From positions 11,529-75,528 of the forward strand of contig CAYFXZ010000002.1 in assembly GCA_964347245.1 (NCBI GenBank): a DNA stretch of 64,000 nucleotides, given 5' to 3'. The DNA comes from an uncultured Candidatus Bathyarchaeia archaeon. Its GTDB lineage: Archaea > Thermoproteota > Bathyarchaeia > Bathyarchaeales > Bathycorpusculaceae. Under the pieces are notes generated by a model, which saw only the letters and a list, made by a program, of their open reading frames with translations, was not told the DNA's origin and did no database searches. Both the position numbers and the translations under genes were made by a program. Below, in pieces: positions 7,591 through 51,827 of the stretch (the first letter of the stretch is position 1; the number at the start of each line of letters is the position of its first letter).

Positions 7591-8229
7591 ATGACAGATG
7601 TATGGCGCAGACCCTACCATGTTGTTATCGAAGTGGAAAACAGACAGTGTAGAATCATGAAAAAGTTTGCTTCCATTGGAATCAAGCACCTGAAAGTAGC
7701 GGACATAAGAAGCTCAAGTAGCGGTTCAGTCAAACATTTGATAGAGCTTGACCGAGAACAGCTTAGAAAAATCCCGAAGGACTTCAAAATCGTTGTGCCT
7801 CGAGGAAAAACTGAAAGTAAACATTCCATATGGTTCGAAAGTGAAGGCTGCGAGGTTTGCAACAGCATTCTCTCTTGTGACGCGTTTTTAATTTCAGGAA
7901 AAAGCATGGAAACGCATACAATAAAATACAGTTGCATAGTACCCACTCTAAAGGCATACAAGAGCATTATATCTGCTCTGGAACGCTCAGGGCACAAGGT
8001 GAACGTTCTCAAAATGGGAAGCTTCGAACCAAGAATGGGAGTCTTGACGGAGAAGCAGGAAAGAATATTCTGGTTAGCGCTAAAGGGGGGCTTCTTTGAC
8101 TACCCGAGGAAAATTGGGACACAGGAGCTCTCTGCTAAGCTGGGAATAACTGTTTCAACGCTTTCGGAGATACTTAGAAGAGGAACCCGGAGATTGCTAC
8201 AGCATTACTTTGAAAAAGAAACCACTTGA
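7591..8229 (+). CDS. Bat-type (HTH_10) transcriptional regulator
   Basis: C-terminal GFFDYPRKIGTQELSAKLGITVSTLSEILRRGTRRLL is the bacterio-opsin-activator-like HTH. SD GAAGGGT-N7-ATG. Confidence 0.75.
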   Translation: MTDVWRRPYHVVIEVENRQCRIMKKFASIGIKHLKVADIRSSSSGSVKHLIELDREQLRKIPKDFKIVVPRGKTESKHSIWFESEGCEVCNSILSCDAFLISGKSMETHTIKYSCIVPTLKAYKSIISALERSGHKVNVLKMGSFEPRMGVLTEKQERIFWLALKGGFFDYPRKIGTQELSAKLGITVSTLSEILRRGTRRLLQHYFEKETT

Positions 8230-8326
8230 ATTTTTCGCAGAAAAACAAAAACTCACAAACAACCCCTTAAATTTTCGGGACAAAGTCTATTTAGATACGC
8301 GACTACCCTATATGGAAGGAATACAA

Positions 8327-9970
8327 ATGAGTCAAGAAAAAATGTTTTGTTACCAATGTGAACAAACGGCCAAAGGACAAGGTTGCACGCTTGTAGGGGT
8401 TTGCGGGAAAACCCCTGATGTAGCCACGCTCCAAGACTTGCTGGTTTATATGCTAAGAGGGCTTTCGCAAGTAACGCTTGAATCAACAAAAGTTGGCGTT
8501 TTAACTGAAGAGGTCAACGTGTTCACTTGCGAAGCATTATTCGCTACACTAACAAACGTAAACTTCGATCCAGACGCCATCGTAGCTTATATCAGGAAAA
8601 CAGCAGAGCTACGCGATCAACTGCGAAAAGAAACGCAAGCAGCTGGAGGACACCTTGTCACGAGTAGAGGACCAACCAATTTAGCTTTGGAAAAAACCAA
8701 GGAAGGGCTCATAGCGCAAGGCAAACTTGTTGGAATAAGATCAGACCCTGCAACAGACCCTGATCTTCACTCGCTTCAATGGCTGTTAACTTATGGCTTG
8801 AAAGGAGCAGCAGCTTACACTTACCATGCTTATATTCTAGGAAAGAAAGACAACAAAGTCTTCGAATTTATACATAAAGGTCTCGCGTCTACGCTGGACA
8901 AATCGTTAGGAGTAAACGACTTCATAGGTTTGGTAATGAAATGCGGCGAAATCAACATCAGAGCTATGGAACTGCTTGACGCGGGAAACACTGAGACGTA
9001 CGGTCACCCAACTCCTACAAAGGTTCCTTTAGGCGCCAAAAAGGGTCATGCGATCCTCGTATCCGGACACGACCTCAAAGACTTAGAGGAACTTCTAAAG
9101 CAAACTGAAGGAACAGGAATCTACGTTTATACTCACGGAGAAATGTTGCCAGCCCATGGATATCCCAAGCTGAAGAAGTATGCTCACTTCTACGGTCACT
9201 ATGGAACAGCATGGCAAAATCAACAGAAAGAATTCGCAGCGTTCCCAGGCGCCATACTGATGACAACAAACTGCATACAAAAACCAATGGAAATCTACAA
9301 AGACAACATTTTCACATCAGGTCCAGTCGGAATGCCCGGAACGCAGCATGTAACAACTGCTGACTTTTCTCCGGTAACAAACCGAGCATTGGAAATGCCG
9401 GGATTTCAAGCCGACATAGAAGGCAAGCACGTTACTGTTGGATTCGGCAGAAATGCTGTTCTAAGCATAGCAGATAAGCTTATAGAAGCAGTGAAAAAAG
9501 GTCACATCAAACGTTTTCTGTTGGTTGGCGGATGTGACGGCGCGAAGCCAGGAAGAAGCTACTACACAGAATTCGTTGAGAAAGCGCCTAAAAACACTAT
9601 TGTTCTGACTCTTGCATGCGGAAAGTTCAGGTTCTTTGATAAAGACCTAGGCATCGTCGATGAAATTCCAAGACTCTTGGACATTGGACAATGCAATGAC
9701 GCTTATTCAGCCGTTAAAATTGCTCAAGCTTTGGCTGAAGCCTTCAACGTAGAAATCAACGATTTACCATTGTCGATTGTATGCTCGTGGTATGAACAGA
9801 AAGCAGTAGCAATATTGCTGTCGCTACTATCTTTGGGCATAAAAAACATAAAGCTCGGACCAAGCCTACCAGCGTTTATAACACCCAACATCCTGAAAGT
9901 GCTCGTTGAAAAGTTCAAAATTAAGCCGATAGCAACTCCTGAAGAAGACTTGAAGGCAATAATGAAGTAG
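8327..9970 (+). CDS. hcp: Hybrid-cluster protein / hydroxylamine reductase
   Basis: N-terminal MFCYQCEQTAKGQGCT cysteine motif and an Hcp-like body. I prefer the ATG at 8327 (GGAAGGA-N6) over the track start at 8210, which overlaps the upstream gene. Confidence 0.92.
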   Translation: MSQEKMFCYQCEQTAKGQGCTLVGVCGKTPDVATLQDLLVYMLRGLSQVTLESTKVGVLTEEVNVFTCEALFATLTNVNFDPDAIVAYIRKTAELRDQLRKETQAAGGHLVTSRGPTNLALEKTKEGLIAQGKLVGIRSDPATDPDLHSLQWLLTYGLKGAAAYTYHAYILGKKDNKVFEFIHKGLASTLDKSLGVNDFIGLVMKCGEINIRAMELLDAGNTETYGHPTPTKVPLGAKKGHAILVSGHDLKDLEELLKQTEGTGIYVYTHGEMLPAHGYPKLKKYAHFYGHYGTAWQNQQKEFAAFPGAILMTTNCIQKPMEIYKDNIFTSGPVGMPGTQHVTTADFSPVTNRALEMPGFQADIEGKHVTVGFGRNAVLSIADKLIEAVKKGHIKRFLLVGGCDGAKPGRSYYTEFVEKAPKNTIVLTLACGKFRFFDKDLGIVDEIPRLLDIGQCNDAYSAVKIAQALAEAFNVEINDLPLSIVCSWYEQKAVAILLSLLSLGIKNIKLGPSLPAFITPNILKVLVEKFKIKPIATPEEDLKAIMK

Positions 9971-12599: not shown

Positions 12600-12918
12600 G
12601 CGGTGGATCACTGTGGTTTGACGCCTAGACTCCGCCTGAAGCCCTCAAGTCCTACGCTCTTACCCGCGACCCCTTGAGCGCTGAACGCCCAGACTTAGGT
12701 TGCTCTCTCCCGAGCCTGGCCGGGTTCGCCTGGTGAACTATGAAATCAGCTTCCCTACGGAAGCTCCTCATCGACCGCCAACCTCAAGGGACGGATAGTC
12801 AATGTTTCGGAAAGGAAGGTCCAAGCGGCCTTTGACGCCTCAGCCTCAGCTGTTAGCCCGTCATATAGAGGGTTTACGGTGCAAGGGACCCCTACCCCCC
12901 CGCCTAAGACCCACCGCC
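12600..12918 (-). ncRNA. ffs: Signal recognition particle RNA (archaeal 7S/SRP RNA)
   Basis: On the minus strand it reads 5'-GGCGGTGGGTC...GATCCACCGC-3', and the termini pair. Helix-8 core is CCAGGCGAACCCGGCCAGGCTCGGGAGAGAGCAAC with a GNRA loop. Helix-6-like hairpin is AGCTTCC-GTAG-GGAAGCT. The GC-rich ~319-nt island has no ORF, has a TATA box upstream, and is followed by an oligo-T stretch (CTATTTTAC). Confidence 0.9.
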
Positions 12919-17712: not shown

Positions 17713-18294
17713 TCATCTGCCTTCCAGAAAGTTTTTCATAACGAGTTTCCCATCCTCACACAGTATGGATTCAGGGTGAAACTGCACGCCGTCAATAGGA
17801 TATTTAGCGTGGCGGACGCCCATTATCTCTCCGTCATTAATAGCCACAGCGGTCACAATTAGACATGAAGGAATCGAGTATTTGTCACCTGCGAGCGAGT
17901 GGTACCGGGTTGCTTTGAATGGGTTGCGGACGCCAATGAAAATACCTTTTTCGTCATGTTTTATTGTGCAGGTTTTTCCATGCATTAGCTTTTTTGCAGA
18001 GACTATTTTTCCACCGAAAGCATGGATTATCCCTTGGTGACCGAGACAGACTCCGAGAGTTGGAACCTTGCGGCTAACGTCTTGAAGTATGGCTGTGCAA
18101 ACGCCGAAGTACCGCTTATCTTCAGGAGTGCCAGGTCCTGGCGAAATGACTATTCTGTCGGGTTTAAGCTTCTTAACTTGCTCTAGGTCTATTTGATCGT
18201 TTCTATAGACGATAACCTCTGCTCCGAGCTCTCCGATGTATTGGACAAGGTTGTAAACGAAAGAATCGTAATTGTCTATGACCAAGACTTTCAA
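17713..18294 (-). CDS. trpG: Anthranilate synthase component II (glutamine amidotransferase)
   Basis: Triad context GVCLGHQ and FHPES. Confidence 0.95.
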   Translation of the reverse strand: MKVLVIDNYDSFVYNLVQYIGELGAEVIVYRNDQIDLEQVKKLKPDRIVISPGPGTPEDKRYFGVCTAILQDVSRKVPTLGVCLGHQGIIHAFGGKIVSAKKLMHGKTCTIKHDEKGIFIGVRNPFKATRYHSLAGDKYSIPSCLIVTAVAINDGEIMGVRHAKYPIDGVQFHPESILCEDGKLVMKNFLEGR

Positions 18295-19706
18295 GTTGTT
18301 TCGCCCCCAGCTTTTTTAAGCGCCTTCATAAGAGCCTCAGCTTTATGGTCAGTTTCAACCCACTCACGTTCTGGAATGGAGTCAGCTACTATTCCTGCTC
18401 CTACCTGAACATAGGCTTTGTCTTCATCTGCAAATAGGGTTCGGATGGTTATGGCGAAATCGGCGTTACCATTATAAGAAAAGTAGCCGACAGCGCCCGC
18501 ATAAGGTCCTCTTTTGGTGGGTTCGAGTTCTTCGATGATTTCCATAGCGCGGACTTTGGGTGCTCCTGAAACAGTGCCTGCTGGAAAAACCGCTCTTAAA
18601 GCGTCATAACATTCTCTATCGTCTCTCAGATCTCCCACAACTTGAGAAACTATATGTTGTACATGACTGTATTTGTGAACTTTCATGAATTCTGGAACGT
18701 GTACGCTTCCGAATTTAGCAATTTTTCCTACGTCGTTTCTAGCCAAGTCAACAAGCATTACGTGCTCAGCCCGTTCTTTAGGATCTGCAAGCAACTCTTT
18801 GGCTAATCTTATGTTTTCGCTGTGGTTTTCCACGCAGGGTCTTGTTCCAGCTATGGGGAAAGTTTCAACCACTCGATTGTCAACTCTGACGAGCATTTCG
18901 GGGCTTGAGCCGACAATTCGACTGCCGCCTGCCTTAAAGAAGTACATATATGGTGACGGGTTTATCTCGCGTAGAGAACGGTAAAAAGCCATCAAGTCGC
19001 CTTCAATCCGGAATTCGTAACGCTTAGAAAGGACAACTTGGAATATATCACCGGCGATTATGTATTCTTTGGCTTTTTCTACTGATTCCTCGAACCGTTC
19101 TTTCGTAGTATTAGCTTTTGGCTGGCCATACTCTAAAGTCTCTGGAGTGCAGGTTTGAGTAGTTAGCGTCTCAACATCGGCAAAGCGGTTATCACTTGAG
19201 TAATAGTAGAATGCACGTTTTTGCCTGTGGTCAAACACGATTCCATCGTCGAAAAATCCCAGCTGGGTATCTGGAAAGTTTAGGTCATCACGAGTTTTTT
19301 GTGGAAGTTTCTCCCAGTAGCGAATTGCATCGTAAGAAATGTAGCCGACTGCGCCTCCGACAAATCTGAATTTGCTATTGAGAACAGTTTTACCTTTAAC
19401 GAGGTTTGCGATGGCGTGCAGGGGGTCGCTTGTTTTATCTCTGGTGGTTTCGCCTGTTTTCTCGTTGCGGATTTCTATGTCTCCGTTCTTTATTTTGATG
19501 GTTAATCTGGGGGCGAAGCCTATGAACGAGTATTGTGCTAGTTTTTTTGGACCCTCGATGGATTCGAGGAGGTAGGCTATTTCATGAAGTTTTTGAAGCT
19601 TAGAAAAGATTTCGAGGGGTGATTGGTTAAAAGGTAGCTTCTTGAAGATTAGTTTATGAGATTTGAGTAGAGCCTGTATTTGTTCGGAGCCAAATACGAT
19701 ACCCCA
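18291..19706 (-). CDS. trpE: Anthranilate synthase component I (start codon unresolved)
   Basis: Chorismate-binding signature (GAGIVADS, RGPYAGAVGY). The TrpE frame is open for 471 codons up to the TAA at 19707-19709. The first ATG/GTG/TTG in frame is the GTG at 19238, which would remove the conserved LLES...YSFIG N-domain. An ATG at 19707 is +1 out of frame (see finding). Confidence 0.9.
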   Translation of the reverse strand, partial: WGIVFGSEQIQALLKSHKLIFKKLPFNQSPLEIFSKLQKLHEIAYLLESIEGPKKLAQYSFIGFAPRLTIKIKNGDIEIRNEKTGETTRDKTSDPLHAIANLVKGKTVLNSKFRFVGGAVGYISYDAIRYWEKLPQKTRDDLNFPDTQLGFFDDGIVFDHRQKRAFYYYSSDNRFADVETLTTQTCTPETLEYGQPKANTTKERFEESVEKAKEYIIAGDIFQVVLSKRYEFRIEGDLMAFYRSLREINPSPYMYFFKAGGSRIVGSSPEMLVRVDNRVVETFPIAGTRPCVENHSENIRLAKELLADPKERAEHVMLVDLARNDVGKIAKFGSVHVPEFMKVHKYSHVQHIVSQVVGDLRDDRECYDALRAVFPAGTVSGAPKVRAMEIIEELEPTKRGPYAGAVGYFSYNGNADFAITIRTLFADEDKAYVQVGAGIVADSIPEREWVETDHKAEALMKALKKAGGETT

Positions 19707-19778
19707 TTATAGCAACCTTCTAAGTTCTAAATCCTACCGTAGTGTCTTATTTAAGGCTTTTGTGAACAAAAACATACA

Positions 19779-31653: not shown

Positions 31654-32277
31654 TTAATATTTGCTATCAAAAGCCGGGCTTGCCAACAGGAATAGCCCAA
31701 TTTCTGCAAATAAATTTGGGGAAAAGTGAACTTTCTTGTTTCCTGCAATAAAAGCTGAATCAACAATTTGAATTGTTCTTTTTATGCAATATTCTTTAAA
31801 GTCTGCAATGCTCAAGAAATGTAGGTTCGGAGTATCATACCACTGGTAAGGTAGTGAAGGTGTGACAGGAACTTTTCCTCTAAAGACCATCTGCAGCCTT
31901 GCTGAAATGCAAAGAAAGTTTGGAAATCCAACAATGGTTTTCTTGCCAACTCTGAGTGCTTCTTTTAAAACAAAATCAGGTTTCTTAACTTGCTGGAAAG
32001 TCTGGTTCAATACTAAATAATCGAAGGACTTATCACCATATTCAGACAAGCCCGTGTCAATGTCTTCTTGAACCACACTTAAGCCTCGAGCAACACATCG
32101 GTGAATTGCTGTATTGCTGATTTCGATACCCTGGGCAAGCACCTGCTTTTCATCTATGAGCCACTCCAAGAGTTCTCCGTCGCCGCAGCCAAGGTCCAGC
32201 ACGGACGCGCCTTGTTCAATCCAATCCATAATGATTTGATGTTCAATTTTGGCTAGGGGCTGTCTCAGATTTGTCAC
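31654..32277 (-). CDS. metW: Methionine biosynthesis protein MetW
   Basis: SAM-MTase-like [11 protein letters not shown]. Overlaps the metX stop by 4 nt. Confidence 0.85.
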
Positions 32278-33419
32278 GCTCCGTTCTTAGTTTCGTTTGA
32301 AACTGCGTTCAGGAAATGCTTTATGAGATGTGCTTCTTCCTCAATTTCCAAGAGAAAAGCGTCGTGACCGTATGTGGAGTTTATCTCGCAGTAAGTAGTA
32401 TCAACCCCTGCGAGCTTGCAAGCTTTCACGATCTCTTGCGACTGGTACGCTGGATAAAGCCAATCCGACTTGAAAGCTATCACAAGCACTTTTGCCTCTA
32501 GACCTTGAAATATGTCAGCTAAGCGTTCTCCATTAAGAAGATTGAAGTAATCTATGGCTTTCGTTATGTACAGGTAAGAGTTGGCGTCGAATCTCTTCAC
32601 AAAGTTGTCTCCGCGATACCGCAAGTATCCTTCAACCTCAAATTCTGCTCCAAACTTGTACGGTTCTCGGGCTGCTCTGAAGCGCCTGCCAAACTTCTTC
32701 GCCATCGAAACATCGCTCATGTAGGTTATGTGACCTATCATTCTTGCCACAGCTAAGCCTTTGGCTGGGATAGCGGAGCCGTAGTAGTTGCCTTTTTTCC
32801 AGTTAGGATCTGCTATTATAGCTTGCCTTCCCACCTCGTTGAAGGCTATTTGCTGAGGTGTATGTTTCATTGTTGTTGCGATGGGAATGGCTGACCGTAT
32901 TCTGTCTGGATAACCGACCATCCACTGAAGCGCTTCCATTCCACCCATCGAGCCGCCAATAACCGTCAAAAGTTTTTCTATTCCTAGATTGTCAATCAAG
33001 CGCTTTTGCGCGTTTACCATGTCCCCTATGGTTATTATTGGAAAATCAAGGCCGTAAGGTTGCCCAGTCTTCGGGTTTATTGAAGAGGGCCCTGTTGAAC
33101 CCTTGCAACCTCCGATTACGTTGGAACAAATTACGAAGTACTTGTCTGTATCTAAACCCTTTCCGGCACCGATTAGGTTGTCCCACCATCCAACCGCAGC
33201 TTCTCCTTTAGGGAATCCTGCAGCGTGCGCATCACCAGAAAGTGCATGGAGAACGAGGACTGCGTTTGATTTCTGTCTGTTGAGTTCTCCGTATGTTTCG
33301 TAAGCTAGTGTCACTGGACCAAGTTTCTCGCCAGACTCAAGAGTTAATTCGTCAGGTGGATGTGCAAAGTTGAAATACTTTGTTTCAGTGTTTTGTAATG
33401 AATAATTTTGGATTGTAAT
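32274..33419 (-). CDS. metX: Homoserine O-acetyltransferase (start unresolved: ATT at 33419, or ATG at 33475 plus a frameshift)
   Basis: Alpha/beta-hydrolase with GGSMGGM nucleophile elbow and [10 protein letters not shown]. The frame is open to 33476, but its first canonical start is the GTG at 33314, inside conserved N-terminal sequence. Confidence 0.9.
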
Positions 33420-33476
33420 TTTTTTCGCCGCCCTAAAGATTTGGTGATGTGCGACTGCCTTGAAGCTCTTTTCATT

Positions 33477-47233: not shown

Positions 47234-47521
47234 TCAGCTTGGGTTCCAGATGCACCAAATAGCTTTTTGTTTACAAGCCAGCACGCAAGGTGCTTTTCCA
47301 CTTTCAGGTTTGCATGGCGAACATATGTATTTGATGTTTTTGCGCTGTTTCTCCGTTACCGCTGCAACCGTCTTGTCGTCCAAATCAATAAACATGCTCA
47401 CCAGTTCGAGGGAGGATGATGGACATTTCTTCACGCATTCACCACAACCATTGCATTTCTCCGCGTTAATGACAATGTAGTATTCTCCTGACCCGTTGCT
47501 ATATCCATAATGCGTGATTAT
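47234..47521 (-). CDS. Ferredoxin (4Fe-4S type), candidate ATA start
   Basis: CNGCGECVKKCP plus CSPCKPESGKAPCVLAC. The first cluster motif lies upstream of the only canonical start (GTG at 47434). AGGTGA-N6-ATA is at 47521. Confidence 0.75.
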   Translation of the reverse strand: MITHYGYSNGSGEYYIVINAEKCNGCGECVKKCPSSSLELVSMFIDLDDKTVAAVTEKQRKNIKYICSPCKPESGKAPCVLACKQKAIWCIWNPS

Positions 47522-47546
47522 TACATGTCACCTCTTTCAAATATTC

Positions 47547-48455
47547 TTAGCTTTTCTGTTGTTTCTCATATAACGCTCTAGCGAAAAGTGCCGCGCCAAT
47601 CGCGCCAGCTATAATGGGGTCTAACCCGTTTTCCCGCCAATCAGGCATAGGAAGGCATTTAATGCCAAGCGCTTTTTCTATCCTTGAGACGATGCCGATG
47701 TTTTTTGATTGTCCGCCAGTAATTGCGAATTCTTTTTCTAATCCCACTCTCTTAACTAGGTTGCCCATACGGATAGCCATCGCGTGAGTATATGCAGCTA
47801 AAACTTTTTCTTTAGACCAGCCTTTACGAAGCAACCCCATGGCTTCAGTTTTTGCGAAAGCCACGCAGGTGCAGCTAACTGGTGGAGGCTCCTCCTCAAC
47901 TTTCAATGAGACTTCACCGATTTTCTCGATCGGAATTTTAAGCAGATCAGCGAAAACTTCCATACCTCTGCCAGTTCCCGCTGCGCATTTATCATTCATT
48001 AAAAACGATGTAACTCGACCTGTTTCGTCGCAATGTATGGCTTTTATGTCTTGACCGCCAACATCGAGCACGGTTCTGACGCTGGGACCCCAAATATAGT
48101 TCGCGCCTTTTGCGTGACAAGCAATTTCTGTGATTGCCTTGTTAGCCATTGGAACGTTCACACGCCCATATCCTGTTCCAACAATGTACTTGAGGTCTTC
48201 AACTCTAAGCCCTGTTCCCTCTATTGCCCAGTCTAAAGCTTTCTTGGCGCTGTCAGGACTGTTTGACCCAGTCCGCATCACGCCCCAAGAATAAACATCT
48301 CCGTCAAGCATTGTTACAGCTTTCGAGCCAACCGAGCCAACGTCAACGCCCGCGGTGATTATGTCCTTGTTTTTCCACTTTTTCTCTGAGAAAACCCTGT
48401 GGTACTCTTGCCAGCGCCAATATTCTATATCTTCTTTCTTCGGGGTTTCACTGAT
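47547..48455 (-). CDS. BcrA/BcrD/HgdC-family electron-activating ATPase, subunit 2 (candidate ATC start)
   Basis: ASKHA phosphate-1 motif GVDVGSVGSKAV, NDKCAAGTG cluster ligand, and the second Cys in CTCVAFAKTE. The phosphate-1 motif lies upstream of the first canonical start (ATG at 48311). Confidence 0.85.
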   Translation of the reverse strand: MSETPKKEDIEYWRWQEYHRVFSEKKWKNKDIITAGVDVGSVGSKAVTMLDGDVYSWGVMRTGSNSPDSAKKALDWAIEGTGLRVEDLKYIVGTGYGRVNVPMANKAITEIACHAKGANYIWGPSVRTVLDVGGQDIKAIHCDETGRVTSFLMNDKCAAGTGRGMEVFADLLKIPIEKIGEVSLKVEEEPPPVSCTCVAFAKTEAMGLLRKGWSKEKVLAAYTHAMAIRMGNLVKRVGLEKEFAITGGQSKNIGIVSRIEKALGIKCLPMPDWRENGLDPIIAGAIGAALFARALYEKQQKS

Positions 48456-49248
48456 TTTCTTTCACCTTCACAACTCGTTTGATGGCGACAAGAGCCGCAC
48501 CCAATGCGCCAACATACTCTGGGTACTCGGGTATTAAAACTTCAACACCCAATTTTCTCTTTAAAGACGTTGCGAAGCCAACGTCTTTTGCGACGCCACC
48601 CACCAGCACAACATCAGGATTTACGCCTAGCCTATGCACCATTGACGAGACTCGATCAGCCATAGCTTCAAATATTGCCCGGGCAATCTCAGGTTTTGAT
48701 TCTTGCTTGTGTATCAGAGACACAACATCTGACTCGCCAAATATTACGCAGCTGGCGTTTATTGAACTTGCACGTTCAGCCTTAAGTGAAAGCGGACCCA
48801 TATCCTCTAGCTTAACCTCTAAAGCTCGCGCCATAGCTTCAATGAATGCGCCGGCACCAGCAGCACACCGCTCGTTAACAACGAAATCCATCATAATCCC
48901 GTTTTCGTCGCATTTTACTGCCCTCGCCTCTTCCGCGCCCACGTCAATAATTGTTCGAGCGTTTGGAAACAAGTGAATCCCTGCTTTTGCGTCTGCCCCC
49001 ATCATACTTACCGTGCTGTTGGAGTTAGCAGCCATATCCATGCCGGAACCTGTAGCCGTAATATGATCTACATTAGATGTTGACAGGTTGACTTCTTTTA
49101 ACGCATCACCAAGAGCCTTTTCAGCAGCCATCGCAGGATCAAACCCAGAAAAAGCTTTACTGCGGGAGACCACCTTACCATCTTTTAATACGACTGCCTT
49201 CACGCTTTGAGTGCCTAAATCTAGTCCAATGGTTATCAACAACTGCAC
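48448..49248 (-). CDS. BcrA/BcrD/HgdC-family electron-activating ATPase, subunit 1
   Basis: IGLDLGTQSVKAV, NERCAAGAG, SCVIFGES. The likely start is the second TTG (49239), because the GTG at 49248 is part of AGAGGTG. Confidence 0.88.
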   Translation of the reverse strand: MQLLITIGLDLGTQSVKAVVLKDGKVVSRSKAFSGFDPAMAAEKALGDALKEVNLSTSNVDHITATGSGMDMAANSNSTVSMMGADAKAGIHLFPNARTIIDVGAEEARAVKCDENGIMMDFVVNERCAAGAGAFIEAMARALEVKLEDMGPLSLKAERASSINASCVIFGESDVVSLIHKQESKPEIARAIFEAMADRVSSMVHRLGVNPDVVLVGGVAKDVGFATSLKRKLGVEVLIPEYPEYVGALGAALVAIKRVVKVKENQ

Positions 49249-49250
49249 CT

Positions 49251-50579
49251 CTATAAGTCAATCCTTGCCGAAAGCATCTCCAAGAACGCTTCAACCCTAG
49301 TCTTCATTTGACCCACGTCTTCCCGAGTGTACTCAGTATCCAAGTAGTAAACAGGAACGCTCTTGTGGTCCAAGACTTTTTTGATCCGCATGTATTCCAT
49401 TGCGTAGAGCATACAACCACGAACTACGTAGTAAATCACGCCTTGTATGTTCCATTCCTTAATTTTGTTTAACATCCAGTTGATGCGGTCTTCGTTACCG
49501 TCTTCAGAAGTGAAGCAGGGACACGTGGACGCCATCAAATACCTTTCAGCTACAGCGTTAAGCATATCTCTCATCGACCACTCGTCCACACCCACAGGGT
49601 CATACAGAAGCCTCTCACTTGAACAAAGCTCGTCAGCCACAAGTAACCCTCTAGGGTTAGCCTCCTCAACCAGCGTGGGAATCTTCCAGTTGTCAGGCCA
49701 AATCATTGGCGTGCCAGTAACCATTACCCGTGGAGTATCCGGAGGGCAAACCCAGTTTTTTTGGTTCGCTCTTTTTTCAAGCTCGTCACATAAGGCTTCA
49801 GTATTCTGCGTCCACCTCTTAATATCATCCCACATGTATGTCTGATTAACAAGCATAGCATCTCTACCCATAATGACTGGAGATCCCTTCCTCAATTCCT
49901 GCAATCTCCTGAAAGCCTTTGTCGCCTTCTGAGTAAGCTCTATGGCAGATTTCAACTGCTTCCCTTTAATCTTGTTTCCAGTTAACGCTTCAATTTGCCC
50001 TTTCACGGCCTTAATTTCCTCGCCCCACAAATGTATGGATTGCTCGGAATCCTTAACTCTTGGAATAGTCATCGCCCAAATAGGCTTATAATCACTAAGA
50101 ATTTCCCCGAGCTTAGTCATCCCATCACACGTTAGCACGCTTATCAAAGCGTCACTCAACTCGAGATAAGGAGACAAAGCAATCATTTGGGCGCCTATAG
50201 TTGAACGGACCATAGGGCAGACTTCAACAGGCACAACCCGGTCTCCAATCTTCGAAGCATCATACCAACCCGAGTTTACACGAACCGGAATAGCATCCGC
50301 AGCCAAAATTAATTCTGTCGGTGCAAACAGGCACATGTAGCCGATAACCTTCTTGCCTTCCCTTTTTGCAACGCTAATTTCTTTTTCCCGCTTGGTAAAA
50401 TCAGCTATTCCATCAAAGTACTTCATAGCTTTAGGACGGTTTGGATCTGCCTTCTTCATTTTCTCAATGTTTTCAGCGACTATCCTCTGGGAAGTAGCTT
50501 TGATTGTTTTTCTCAGTTCTTCAACTTCTTTCTGAGAGAGTTCAGGCATGTATTTCTTTTCTTCACTTTGGCTTATCAT
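49251..50579 (-). CDS. 2-hydroxyacyl-CoA dehydratase / BcrB-C / double-cubane-cluster-protein family Fe-S subunit
   Basis: 442 aa. Family-like Cys contexts GYMCLFAP, VEVCPM, LTCDG, STCPCF, RGCMLY. GAGTGA-N6-ATG. Confidence 0.7.
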   Translation of the reverse strand: MISQSEEKKYMPELSQKEVEELRKTIKATSQRIVAENIEKMKKADPNRPKAMKYFDGIADFTKREKEISVAKREGKKVIGYMCLFAPTELILAADAIPVRVNSGWYDASKIGDRVVPVEVCPMVRSTIGAQMIALSPYLELSDALISVLTCDGMTKLGEILSDYKPIWAMTIPRVKDSEQSIHLWGEEIKAVKGQIEALTGNKIKGKQLKSAIELTQKATKAFRRLQELRKGSPVIMGRDAMLVNQTYMWDDIKRWTQNTEALCDELEKRANQKNWVCPPDTPRVMVTGTPMIWPDNWKIPTLVEEANPRGLLVADELCSSERLLYDPVGVDEWSMRDMLNAVAERYLMASTCPCFTSEDGNEDRINWMLNKIKEWNIQGVIYYVVRGCMLYAMEYMRIKKVLDHKSVPVYYLDTEYTREDVGQMKTRVEAFLEMLSARIDL

Positions 50580-50585
50580 TATTAA

Positions 50586-51575
50586 TCACTCAATTGTTGA
50601 AGGTTCTAACCAGTTTCGAGACTTGAAAACGGTTTTTCTTCCCATCTTTACTTTCAAACAGTCTTCATATGGACACATTTCAACACACCTCGTGCACAGC
50701 ATGCACATTGAGGTGCTAATTTTTTCCCCTTTCTGTTCGTACACTTCGGTGACCTGCACTGGACAAACTCGCTTGCAAATTCCGCATTTAGTGCATTTCT
50801 GCTCATCCTTATCTATATGAAGCATAGGAGCCCATTTAAAACCTTTAAACCTATTCACGACAGCAATCGATACCCCTGTCGGACAAAACCGGCACCATAC
50901 GCGCCTCACAAAGAATGAACCAATAAACGTTAACCCCACGAAGATCCACGAGATAATATTAACAAAAAGTTGGTTGAAAACCACTTCAGAGTAAAGTATA
51001 ACTTCTTGAACGTACGGATAGCTGAAGTAAACTCCACTAATTGCAAGCGGCCCCTCCCAAGGGACAATCAATGGTATGATAGGACCAACCAGAATTCTCA
51101 AGGGCTCAAAAGGACCAGATAAAAGCAAAGCCAGAAGAACAGATAAGTCAAACGACGATGGAGGATCAAGCAGGAATAACACAAAAGGTATGATCAAAAA
51201 GATAAGAAACAACACGTATCGGAAGTTATGCAGGAATTTGTTGAGTTTATCGGATAAAAGGCGGTAGCGCACTTTGACGGTTTTTCTGATTAGAGTAATC
51301 GCATCCATGTATAAAGCAAAGGGACAAATCCAACCGCAAAAGAACCTTCCGAGAAAAAGAGGGAGAATAAGAATTACTGTTAACACTATAAGCTGCCATA
51401 CAGGGTAAGTGAACAAATAGAAAACCGCAACCATGGAAACTACCTGAACAAGGAAACGAAGATAGGTCACTTTTGTCGCCAGACCTTTTTTCCATATAAG
51501 AATAACAAGTATCCCCGCTAACGCTAACCCCGAGAGAACCGTTAACTTCAGTAACTCACCAATGATTTCCATCAT
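50586..51575 (-). CDS. NapH-like membrane polyferredoxin
   Basis: TM helices with CGWICPF. C-terminal CTKCGICKRVCP and CMLCTRCVEMCP. I prefer the ATG at 51575 (GGCGA-N7) to the track start at 51665. Confidence 0.78.
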   Translation of the reverse strand: MMEIIGELLKLTVLSGLALAGILVILIWKKGLATKVTYLRFLVQVVSMVAVFYLFTYPVWQLIVLTVILILPLFLGRFFCGWICPFALYMDAITLIRKTVKVRYRLLSDKLNKFLHNFRYVLFLIFLIIPFVLFLLDPPSSFDLSVLLALLLSGPFEPLRILVGPIIPLIVPWEGPLAISGVYFSYPYVQEVILYSEVVFNQLFVNIISWIFVGLTFIGSFFVRRVWCRFCPTGVSIAVVNRFKGFKWAPMLHIDKDEQKCTKCGICKRVCPVQVTEVYEQKGEKISTSMCMLCTRCVEMCPYEDCLKVKMGRKTVFKSRNWLEPSTIE

Positions 51576-51827
51576 GTTTATTTCGCCTTCGCAAAGTCTG
51601 GCAGCCAAATTAAGGTACAGAGCACTAATCCGAATAAGAAAACTTTGGCGGACACACCAAAACACTTTGAAAGCTCAAGCACCATTAACATTTTTAAAAT
51701 CTCGGGGTTTTTAGAGATCAAATAGAACCTGTTGCATTTAAAGCTTACACAAATAATAGGTTAAATGAGTTATTAGTTCAACATGGGAGTAGGCAGCGCA
51801 GTTCTTGCCTGAGACGCACAATGAACC

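Follow-up and report, generated by a model that had tools for sequence, protein, structure and literature searches.

The stretch of DNA analyzed here, 64,000 nucleotides (nt) from an uncultured Candidatus Bathyarchaeia archaeon (assembly GCA_964347245.1, contig CAYFXZ010000002.1, positions 11,529 to 75,528; hereafter the window), contains a minus-strand operon that encodes a polyferredoxin, a reductase subunit, two activator ATPases, and a ferredoxin. All close homologues of the operon proteins are encoded in Bathyarchaeia metagenome-assembled genomes (MAGs). Two genes of the operon, those of the second ATPase (ATPase-2) and of the ferredoxin, have no in-frame ATG, GTG, or TTG codon (hereafter canonical starts) ahead of the region encoding their conserved N-terminal motifs, and comparison with relatives makes it probable that both are intact, translated genes that start at near-cognate codons, with ATPase-2 beginning at AUC and the ferredoxin at AUA or at the AUC next to it. 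The genes of the operon and the elements of the two start regions, with protein lengths in amino acids (aa) and with Shine-Dalgarno abbreviated SD, are the following.

50586–51575, minus strand: NapH-like membrane polyferredoxin, 329 aa, starting with ATG ATG at 51575 after GAAGGCGA-N7
49251–50579, minus strand: HGD-D/double-cubane-cluster reductase-like catalytic subunit, 442 aa, PF06050, GAGTGA-N6-ATG
48448–49239, minus strand: ATPase-1, a BzdP/BcrD-like subunit, BcrAD_BadFG, TTG start, stop codon TGA at 48450–48448
48462–48468, minus strand: SD-like AAGGTGA, the TGA of which, in frame with ATPase-2, bounds its reading frame on the upstream side
48453–48455, minus strand: ATC, proposed AUC start of ATPase-2, 6 nt past AAGGTGA
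47547–48455, minus strand: ATPase-2, a BzdQ-like ASKHA activator ATPase subunit, BcrAD_BadFG, 302 aa from the ATC, TIGR03192 and PF01869
47528–47534, minus strand: SD-like GAGGTGA, the TGA of which is the in-frame upstream stop of the ferredoxin
47519–47521, minus strand: ATA, proposed AUA start of the ferredoxin, 6 nt past GAGGTGA
47516–47518, minus strand: ATC, alternative ferredoxin start in the next codon, adjoining the ATA; the peptide would begin ITHYGY
47234–47521, minus strand: ferredoxin, small 2x[4Fe-4S] type with two Cys clusters, 95 aa, Fer4 families, last gene of the operon

The ATPase-2 frame is open from 48461, directly after the TGA at 48464–48462, and reads KKISETPKKEDIEYWRWQEYHRVFSEKKWKNKDIITAGVDVGSVGSKAVTM. 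Its first canonical start is the ATG at 48311, codon 50 of the open frame, which lies past the phosphate-1 motif; the region upstream of this ATG encodes EYWRWQEYH followed further on by GVDVGSVGSKAV. The extended protein scores 385.1 bits against the BzdQ model TIGR03192 (cut-off, 380.2), with residues 9–301 aligned on model positions 7–293, and this equivalog cut-off is passed only with the N-terminal extension. The family models require the N-terminal parts, which are real protein. The ferredoxin frame is likewise open from 47527, directly after the TGA at 47530–47528, and reads HVIITHYGYSNGSGEYYIVINAEKCNGCGEC; its first canonical start, the GTG at 47434, lies 29 codons past the ATA and within the Cys motif C-V-K-K-C-P, so that HYGYSNGSGEYYIVINAEKCNGCGEC is encoded upstream of it, and the Fer4 match begins at residue 17–18. 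An earlier note on this DNA had described the missing starts and the GGTGA-N6 spacing ahead of the ATC at 48455–48453 and the ATA at 47521–47519, and all of its coordinates are confirmed on the minus strand. The genes with ordinary starts to which it compared this geometry also bear it out: purA (GGGTGA-N6-ATG, 5336), the 442-aa reductase gene (GAGTGA-N6-ATG, 50579), and several GGTGA-N5-ATG genes have spacings like those of the AUH (AUU, AUA, or AUC) cases.

The ATPase-2 start was aligned with JGI contigs, 10 genomes of close GTDB species, and 19 close metagenome contigs (L001–L011, L100–L118). Among the approximately 120 best homologues, almost all proteins are 302 aa long, the same length as the window protein counted from the ATC, and their N-termini follow the pattern M/V/L-[KS]-E-[TNA]-P-K-K-E-D, where the window has I-S-E-T-P-K-K-E-D (e.g., MSETPKKED vs. 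ISETPKKED). In the DNA alignment, the ATG (sometimes GTG or TTG) of the relatives falls base-for-base on the window ATC, and the run GAAACCCCG is of equal length in the relatives, whose CCCC run is unchanged. Judged from this alignment, the start codon of ATPase-2 has undergone a species-specific ATG>ATC change by a single G>C substitution.

The earlier note had raised single-base assembly indels that mask canonical in-frame starts as its alternative, and its arithmetic is right: the out-of-frame GTG at 48451 and ATG at 47526 exist, and one added base puts either of them in frame. The alignment of orthologous junctions that it proposed has now been made and favors non-canonical starts, with the starts of orthologues aligning with the ATC and ATA positions. 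The relatives show a substitution rather than an indel, having an identical GAAACCCCG, an ATG at the ATC position, and a conserved length of 302 aa, and ferredoxin relatives (e.g., L007, L009, and L010) have no nearby ATG, GTG, or TTG in any frame. In addition, three assemblies of the same species agree at both junctions. The contig from Logan ERR2564004 (L087) differs from the window by one single-nucleotide polymorphism (SNP) in 5170 nt and that of the NCBI MAG GCA_012975005.1 (JABAOC010000056.1, L088) by six SNPs in 9329 nt, in both cases with no gap and with identical junctions; within ATPase-2 there are two SNPs among the three assemblies, one synonymous and one A>V. We therefore consider an indel at these junctions extremely improbable.

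The SD region of ATPase-2 also differs from that of its relatives, which have AAGGTGT at this site with GGTG-TAA ending ATPase-1, whereas the window has GGTGAAA without that TAA (48448–48468, minus strand). Without the TAA that directly follows GGTG in the relatives, ATPase-1 runs on for four more codons to its stop at 48450–48448, which lies 3 nt past the ATC and gives the two ATPase genes of the window their 8-nt overlap; the same change completes the GGTGA. We suggest that the improvement of the SD from GGTGT to GGTGA, together with the overlap, may compensate for a weak AUC start.

For the ferredoxin, the comparison extends over a wider range of organisms. The 38 loci from outside the Bathyarchaeia belong to Asgard archaea, Thermoplasmata, and bacteria, and two more distant Bathyarchaeia loci (L060 and L078) were added. 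Canonical starts are present in 36 of the 38 and in L060 and L078, either at the position of the window ATA or one codon upstream, with the proteins beginning M-[ILK]-A-N-Y-G-Y from ATG, GTG, or TTG; two Anaerolineales MAGs (L049 and L072) carry CTG there instead, with none of the canonical starts listed nearby. In a set of 44 Bathyarchaeia genomes, each of a distinct species, the start-position codon is ATT in 9, ATA in 8, ATC in 2, GTT in 7, GTA in 1, TTC in 1, and canonical (ATG/GTG/TTG) in 16, and 15 genomes of the set lack any in-frame canonical start between the upstream stop and codon +4. An independent scan of 50 metagenome contigs gave ATT in 20, ATA in 5, ATC in 2, GTT in 4, TTT in 2, TTC in 2, and a canonical codon in 15, with 20 contigs lacking an in-frame canonical ferredoxin start. 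The assemblies stem from many projects, and their contig names suggest that SPAdes, MEGAHIT, JGI, and long-read assemblies are all represented. The distance from the GGTGA-like motif to the start position is 5–6 nt in the non-canonical cases and 4–5 nt in the canonical ones.

Over the 28 ferredoxin codons between the ATA and the internal GTG, the ratio of nonsynonymous to synonymous substitution rates (dN/dS) relative to the homologues is 0.01–0.18, and we therefore take these codons to be translated in this frame. At the same loci, ATPase-1 starts with ATG in 29 cases, GTG in 6, and TTG in 2, and the reductase gene, which has a canonical ATG in relatives, with ATG in 26 and TTG in 3; the few non-canonical codons of these two genes mostly look, by eye, like one-codon alignment offsets, with the exception of a CTG in L038. 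Given the canonical starts of ATPase-1 and the reductase gene in the same loci, the peculiarity is specific to the ferredoxin gene and not a matter of sloppy assemblies. On this comparative evidence, the non-canonical ferredoxin start is an old, conserved, gene-specific, and lineage-wide feature of Bathyarchaeia, that is, biology and not assembly error. The ferredoxin is absent from the gene calls of GCA_012975005.1, of the Logan contig, and of a JGI relative (L006), and the gene callers give ATPase-2, on the contigs that carry the ATC, as a 254-aa product without the phosphate-1 motif. As a separate observation, the exception in L038 (Ca. Bathycorpusculum acetigenerans WQVG01000053.1, at approximately 1700) has GGTGA-N6-CTG in ATPase-1 where relatives have ATG, with an in-frame stop two codons upstream of the CTG, and is a candidate CUG start.

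The out-of-frame codons at the two junctions could alternatively serve programmed frameshifting, or a start-stop (ATG TAA) element could be involved. The GTG at 48451 overlaps the ATPase-1 stop as GTGA, and ATG-TAA in the window and TTG-TAA in L006 stand ahead of the ferredoxin. However, no slippery sequence is present, the S-E-T-P residues before the putative shift site are conserved in the frame of the ATC, and the out-of-frame starts are missing in most relatives, which leaves this explanation with hardly any probability.

A survey of all long open frames in the window flagged a third gene without a canonical start, metX, in the open frame 32274–33476 (minus strand).

32274–33419, minus strand: metX (homoserine O-acetyltransferase), with GGGCGGCGA (33425–33433), 5 nt, and ATT (33419–33417)

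The first canonical metX start is the GTG at 33314, codon 54, and the MetX model requires approximately 30 residues more. The closest orthologues are called from a TTG or ATG that has no SD, and the same codon in the window is the synonymous Leu codon TTA. Seven codons upstream of the called start, a strong SD and an AUH codon are found in the window and relatives alike: L089 and L091 have GGGAGGCGA-N5-ATA, and L092 has GGAGGC followed by an ATA in frame. The non-canonical state of metX is thus kept in three relatives.

Translational coupling offers a different account of these genes, in which ribosomes that end an upstream gene restart nearby, the identity of the codon is of minor importance, and the SD only retains the ribosome. 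The ATPase-1 stop 3 nt past the ATC, with its 8-nt overlap, fits this account, as does the ATPase-2/ferredoxin junction of many Bathyarchaeia, where the stop of ATPase-2 adjoins the SD of the ferredoxin or overlaps it (TAGGTGA, TGAGGTGA) and the gap is 2–14 nt; one subclade has an in-frame GTG 2 nt after the ATPase-2 stop. According to part of a published study (PMC10666635), coupling requires overlaps or very short gaps, and the window gaps of 25 nt from the ATPase-2 stop to the ferredoxin start and of 57 nt from the upstream stop to the metX ATT are too long. Reinitiation would also still require pairing of the initiator tRNA with a start codon, and coupling therefore complements near-cognate initiation and does not replace it. 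Although coupling may contribute where stop and start are close, as at the ATPase-1/ATPase-2 junction and at many ATPase-2/ferredoxin junctions of relatives, we consider it unlikely to be the explanation of these starts.

ATT, ATC, and ATA are rare starts in genetic code table 11; in archaea, aIF1 reportedly discriminates against non-canonical codons (PMC6237735). Based on the SD geometry and homology, we infer that AUC and AUA are most likely used, that methionine is most likely inserted at them, and that expression may be affected. In the mechanism that we propose, a strong GGUGA SD would pair with the 3' end of the 16S rRNA, and this pairing would set the ribosomal P site approximately 6 nt downstream, where the initiator Met-tRNA would accept a third-position mismatch at AUC, AUA, or AUU. 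Initiation is expected to be weaker than at AUG, and the 8-nt overlap of the ATPase genes may add translational coupling. The N-terminal peptides expected from the proposed starts are M/I-SETPKKEDIEYWR for ATPase-2 and M/I-ITHYGYSNGSGEYY for the ferredoxin. That weak starts tune the stoichiometry of the subunits, as the earlier note had proposed, is a guess. A search of the window for tRNA genes, with an unusual initiator tRNA in mind, returned none, and a search of the literature on non-canonical starts in Bathyarchaeia or archaea found no report specific to Bathyarchaeia.

Several points weigh against initiation at AUC and AUA. Among ferredoxins that lack a canonical start, about one in four has GTT, TTT, or TTC at this position; since these codons are not near-cognate, at least those ferredoxins must start elsewhere. 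Codon +1 is AUH in every Bathyarchaeia ferredoxin locus, 8–9 nt from the SD, and could be the true start in some or all genomes. The codon at the start position is always NUN, which is also consistent with an ordinary hydrophobic residue. The anti-SD sequence is taken to be the general archaeal one, which may not be the 16S tail of this organism. In Escherichia coli, AUA, AUC, and AUU yield 1–2% of the initiation at AUG (Hecht et al., 10.1101/063800). For ATPase-2, the ATC is confined to the species of the window, where it is present in three assemblies, and all close relatives compared have ATG, GTG, or TTG. The ATG>ATC change could accordingly have inactivated the gene, yielding a truncated protein or none, and the 254-aa product of the gene callers, which lacks the phosphate-1 motif, would fit a young pseudogene. 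Against loss of function, ATPase-2 is free of further lesions and shares 93% identity with intact relatives, its ATC is fixed, being common to three assemblies with SNPs between them, and its SD is improved relative to those of relatives; moreover, the same genome holds two further SD-AUH genes that are conserved in relatives. Loss of function is inapplicable to the ferredoxin, which is under purifying selection and lacks a canonical start in more than 35 contigs. We consider it quite improbable for ATPase-2 and retain near-cognate initiation as the probable explanation for both genes.

A fourth gene of the window with an odd start is trpE (18291–19706, minus strand; open region to 19715), in which an in-frame TAA at 19709–19707 directly precedes the strongly conserved N-terminal motif WGIVFGS and the first canonical in-frame start lies 156 codons downstream. 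A 30-nt block is invariant in the relatives and includes an ATG at 19707–19705 that is offset by 1 nt (A-TGG); the frame of this ATG is an open reading frame (ORF) of 17–21 aa, MGYRIWL... Four JGI contigs with 90% identity share the TAA, and their calls are truncated (400 aa). This arrangement may reflect a leader peptide, frameshifting, or a further non-canonical start. The gene after metX encodes a MetW-like methyltransferase that is called as 200, 184, and 175 aa in the near-identical contigs L089, L090, and L091 (at approximately 2620–2700), which points to one more start site of uncertain position; in the window, the metX stop and a GTG share the sequence GTGA (32277).

Hydroxylamine reductase, a K+/H+ antiporter, and the polyferredoxin, considered as further cases because of their long start-free N-termini, were rejected, as canonical starts lie further downstream. 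For hydroxylamine reductase (hybrid-cluster protein; 8150–9970, plus strand), the model begins at residue 65 of the open frame, and the start is probably the ATG at 8327 (GGAAGGA-N6-ATG) instead of the TTG at 8210 given in the ORF list. For the polyferredoxin, the mechanical ORF from the GTG at 51665 (50586–51665, minus strand) is 359 aa long, and the relatives and the SD, GAAGGCGA-N7, favor the ATG ATG at 51575. A 482-aa homologue (P0119) that would fuse ATPase-1 and ATPase-2 lies on a distant contig, is apparently two genes merged at gene calling, and was set aside as not relevant. The sole Rfam match in the window is a full-length archaeal signal recognition particle RNA (12601–12916, minus strand; 153 bits).

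A broader reading, to which we give some credence but which we regard as doubtful, is that Bathyarchaeia have a relaxed, SD-anchored selection of start codons, in which a GGUGA 5–6 nt upstream would permit AUU, AUA, AUC, and perhaps any NUN codon. GUU, UUU, and UUC are found at the ferredoxin start position in genomes that offer no other candidate. A count of the codons 5–7 nt past GGTGA at ORF 5' ends, made over 328 kb of sequence from Bathyarchaeia loci and compared with permuted motifs, yielded no further AUH-start genes, in a set that is small, derives mostly from the same operon, excludes ORFs below 100 codons, and is uninformative on genome-wide frequency. If selection were relaxed in this way, several percent of genes would start non-canonically (three, or four with trpE, of approximately 55 genes in the window), and standard annotation would systematically miss or truncate them. 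Gene finders restricted to ATG, GTG, and TTG fail here, leaving the ferredoxin uncalled, ATPase-2 a 254-aa fragment, and metX and trpE truncated. Metabolic reconstructions of Bathyarchaeia, an abundant uncultured lineage of sediments, would lose the electron donor of the reductase system and one activator subunit. These genes provide a natural case for asking how far an SD compensates for a mismatched start codon in an initiation system of eukaryote-like type and whether weak starts set the ratios of subunits.

With respect to known systems, the operon resembles the Bzd-type benzoyl-CoA reductase activators BzdQ and BzdP and the double-cubane reductases in having an HGD-D-type subunit, two BcrAD_BadFG ATPases, and a ferredoxin in matching order. 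It differs from the Bzd system in its single HGD-D-type subunit and the absence of a BzdN/BzdO pair; this subunit clearly matches PF06050 (HGD-D) and scores 333.3 bits against NF040772, the model of the double-cubane-cluster anaerobic reductase, below the cut-off of 350. These differences bear on the identity of the genes rather than on their start codons. As in the termination-reinitiation pairs described in part of PMC10666635, the serial genes encode subunits of one complex, the ATPase genes overlap by 8 nt, and stops abut the SD in many relatives. Unlike in those pairs, the gaps at the ferredoxin and metX are too long in the window, and a start codon would still be needed. The core of archaeal initiation is eukaryote-like. 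In eukaryotes, AUA and AUU are among the codons of conserved non-AUG N-terminal extensions, according to part of a published account (PMC3105428). In contrast to eukaryotic near-cognate initiation, the site would here be chosen by an SD at fixed spacing and not by scanning with a Kozak context, and the whole protein, instead of an extension, would depend on the near-cognate codon.

A close parallel is provided by infC and pcnB, the only confirmed AUU starts of E. coli (10.1101/063800). The Bathyarchaeia genes differ from these in that initiation is archaeal (aIF1/aIF1A/aIF2) and not IF3-based and that neither autoregulation nor an initiation factor is involved with them. The affected genes are those of a ferredoxin, an ATPase subunit, and metX, and their putative start codon varies among AUU, AUA, and AUC and is sometimes GUU or UUU. 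As in infC and pcnB, a ribosome-binding site precedes a near-cognate AUH codon that occupies the homologous start position; in the case of the ferredoxin and metX, relatives share the non-canonical state. These starts are most likely a known kind of exception, the infC-like near-cognate start, now recognized in Bathyarchaeia as a conserved feature of particular genes.

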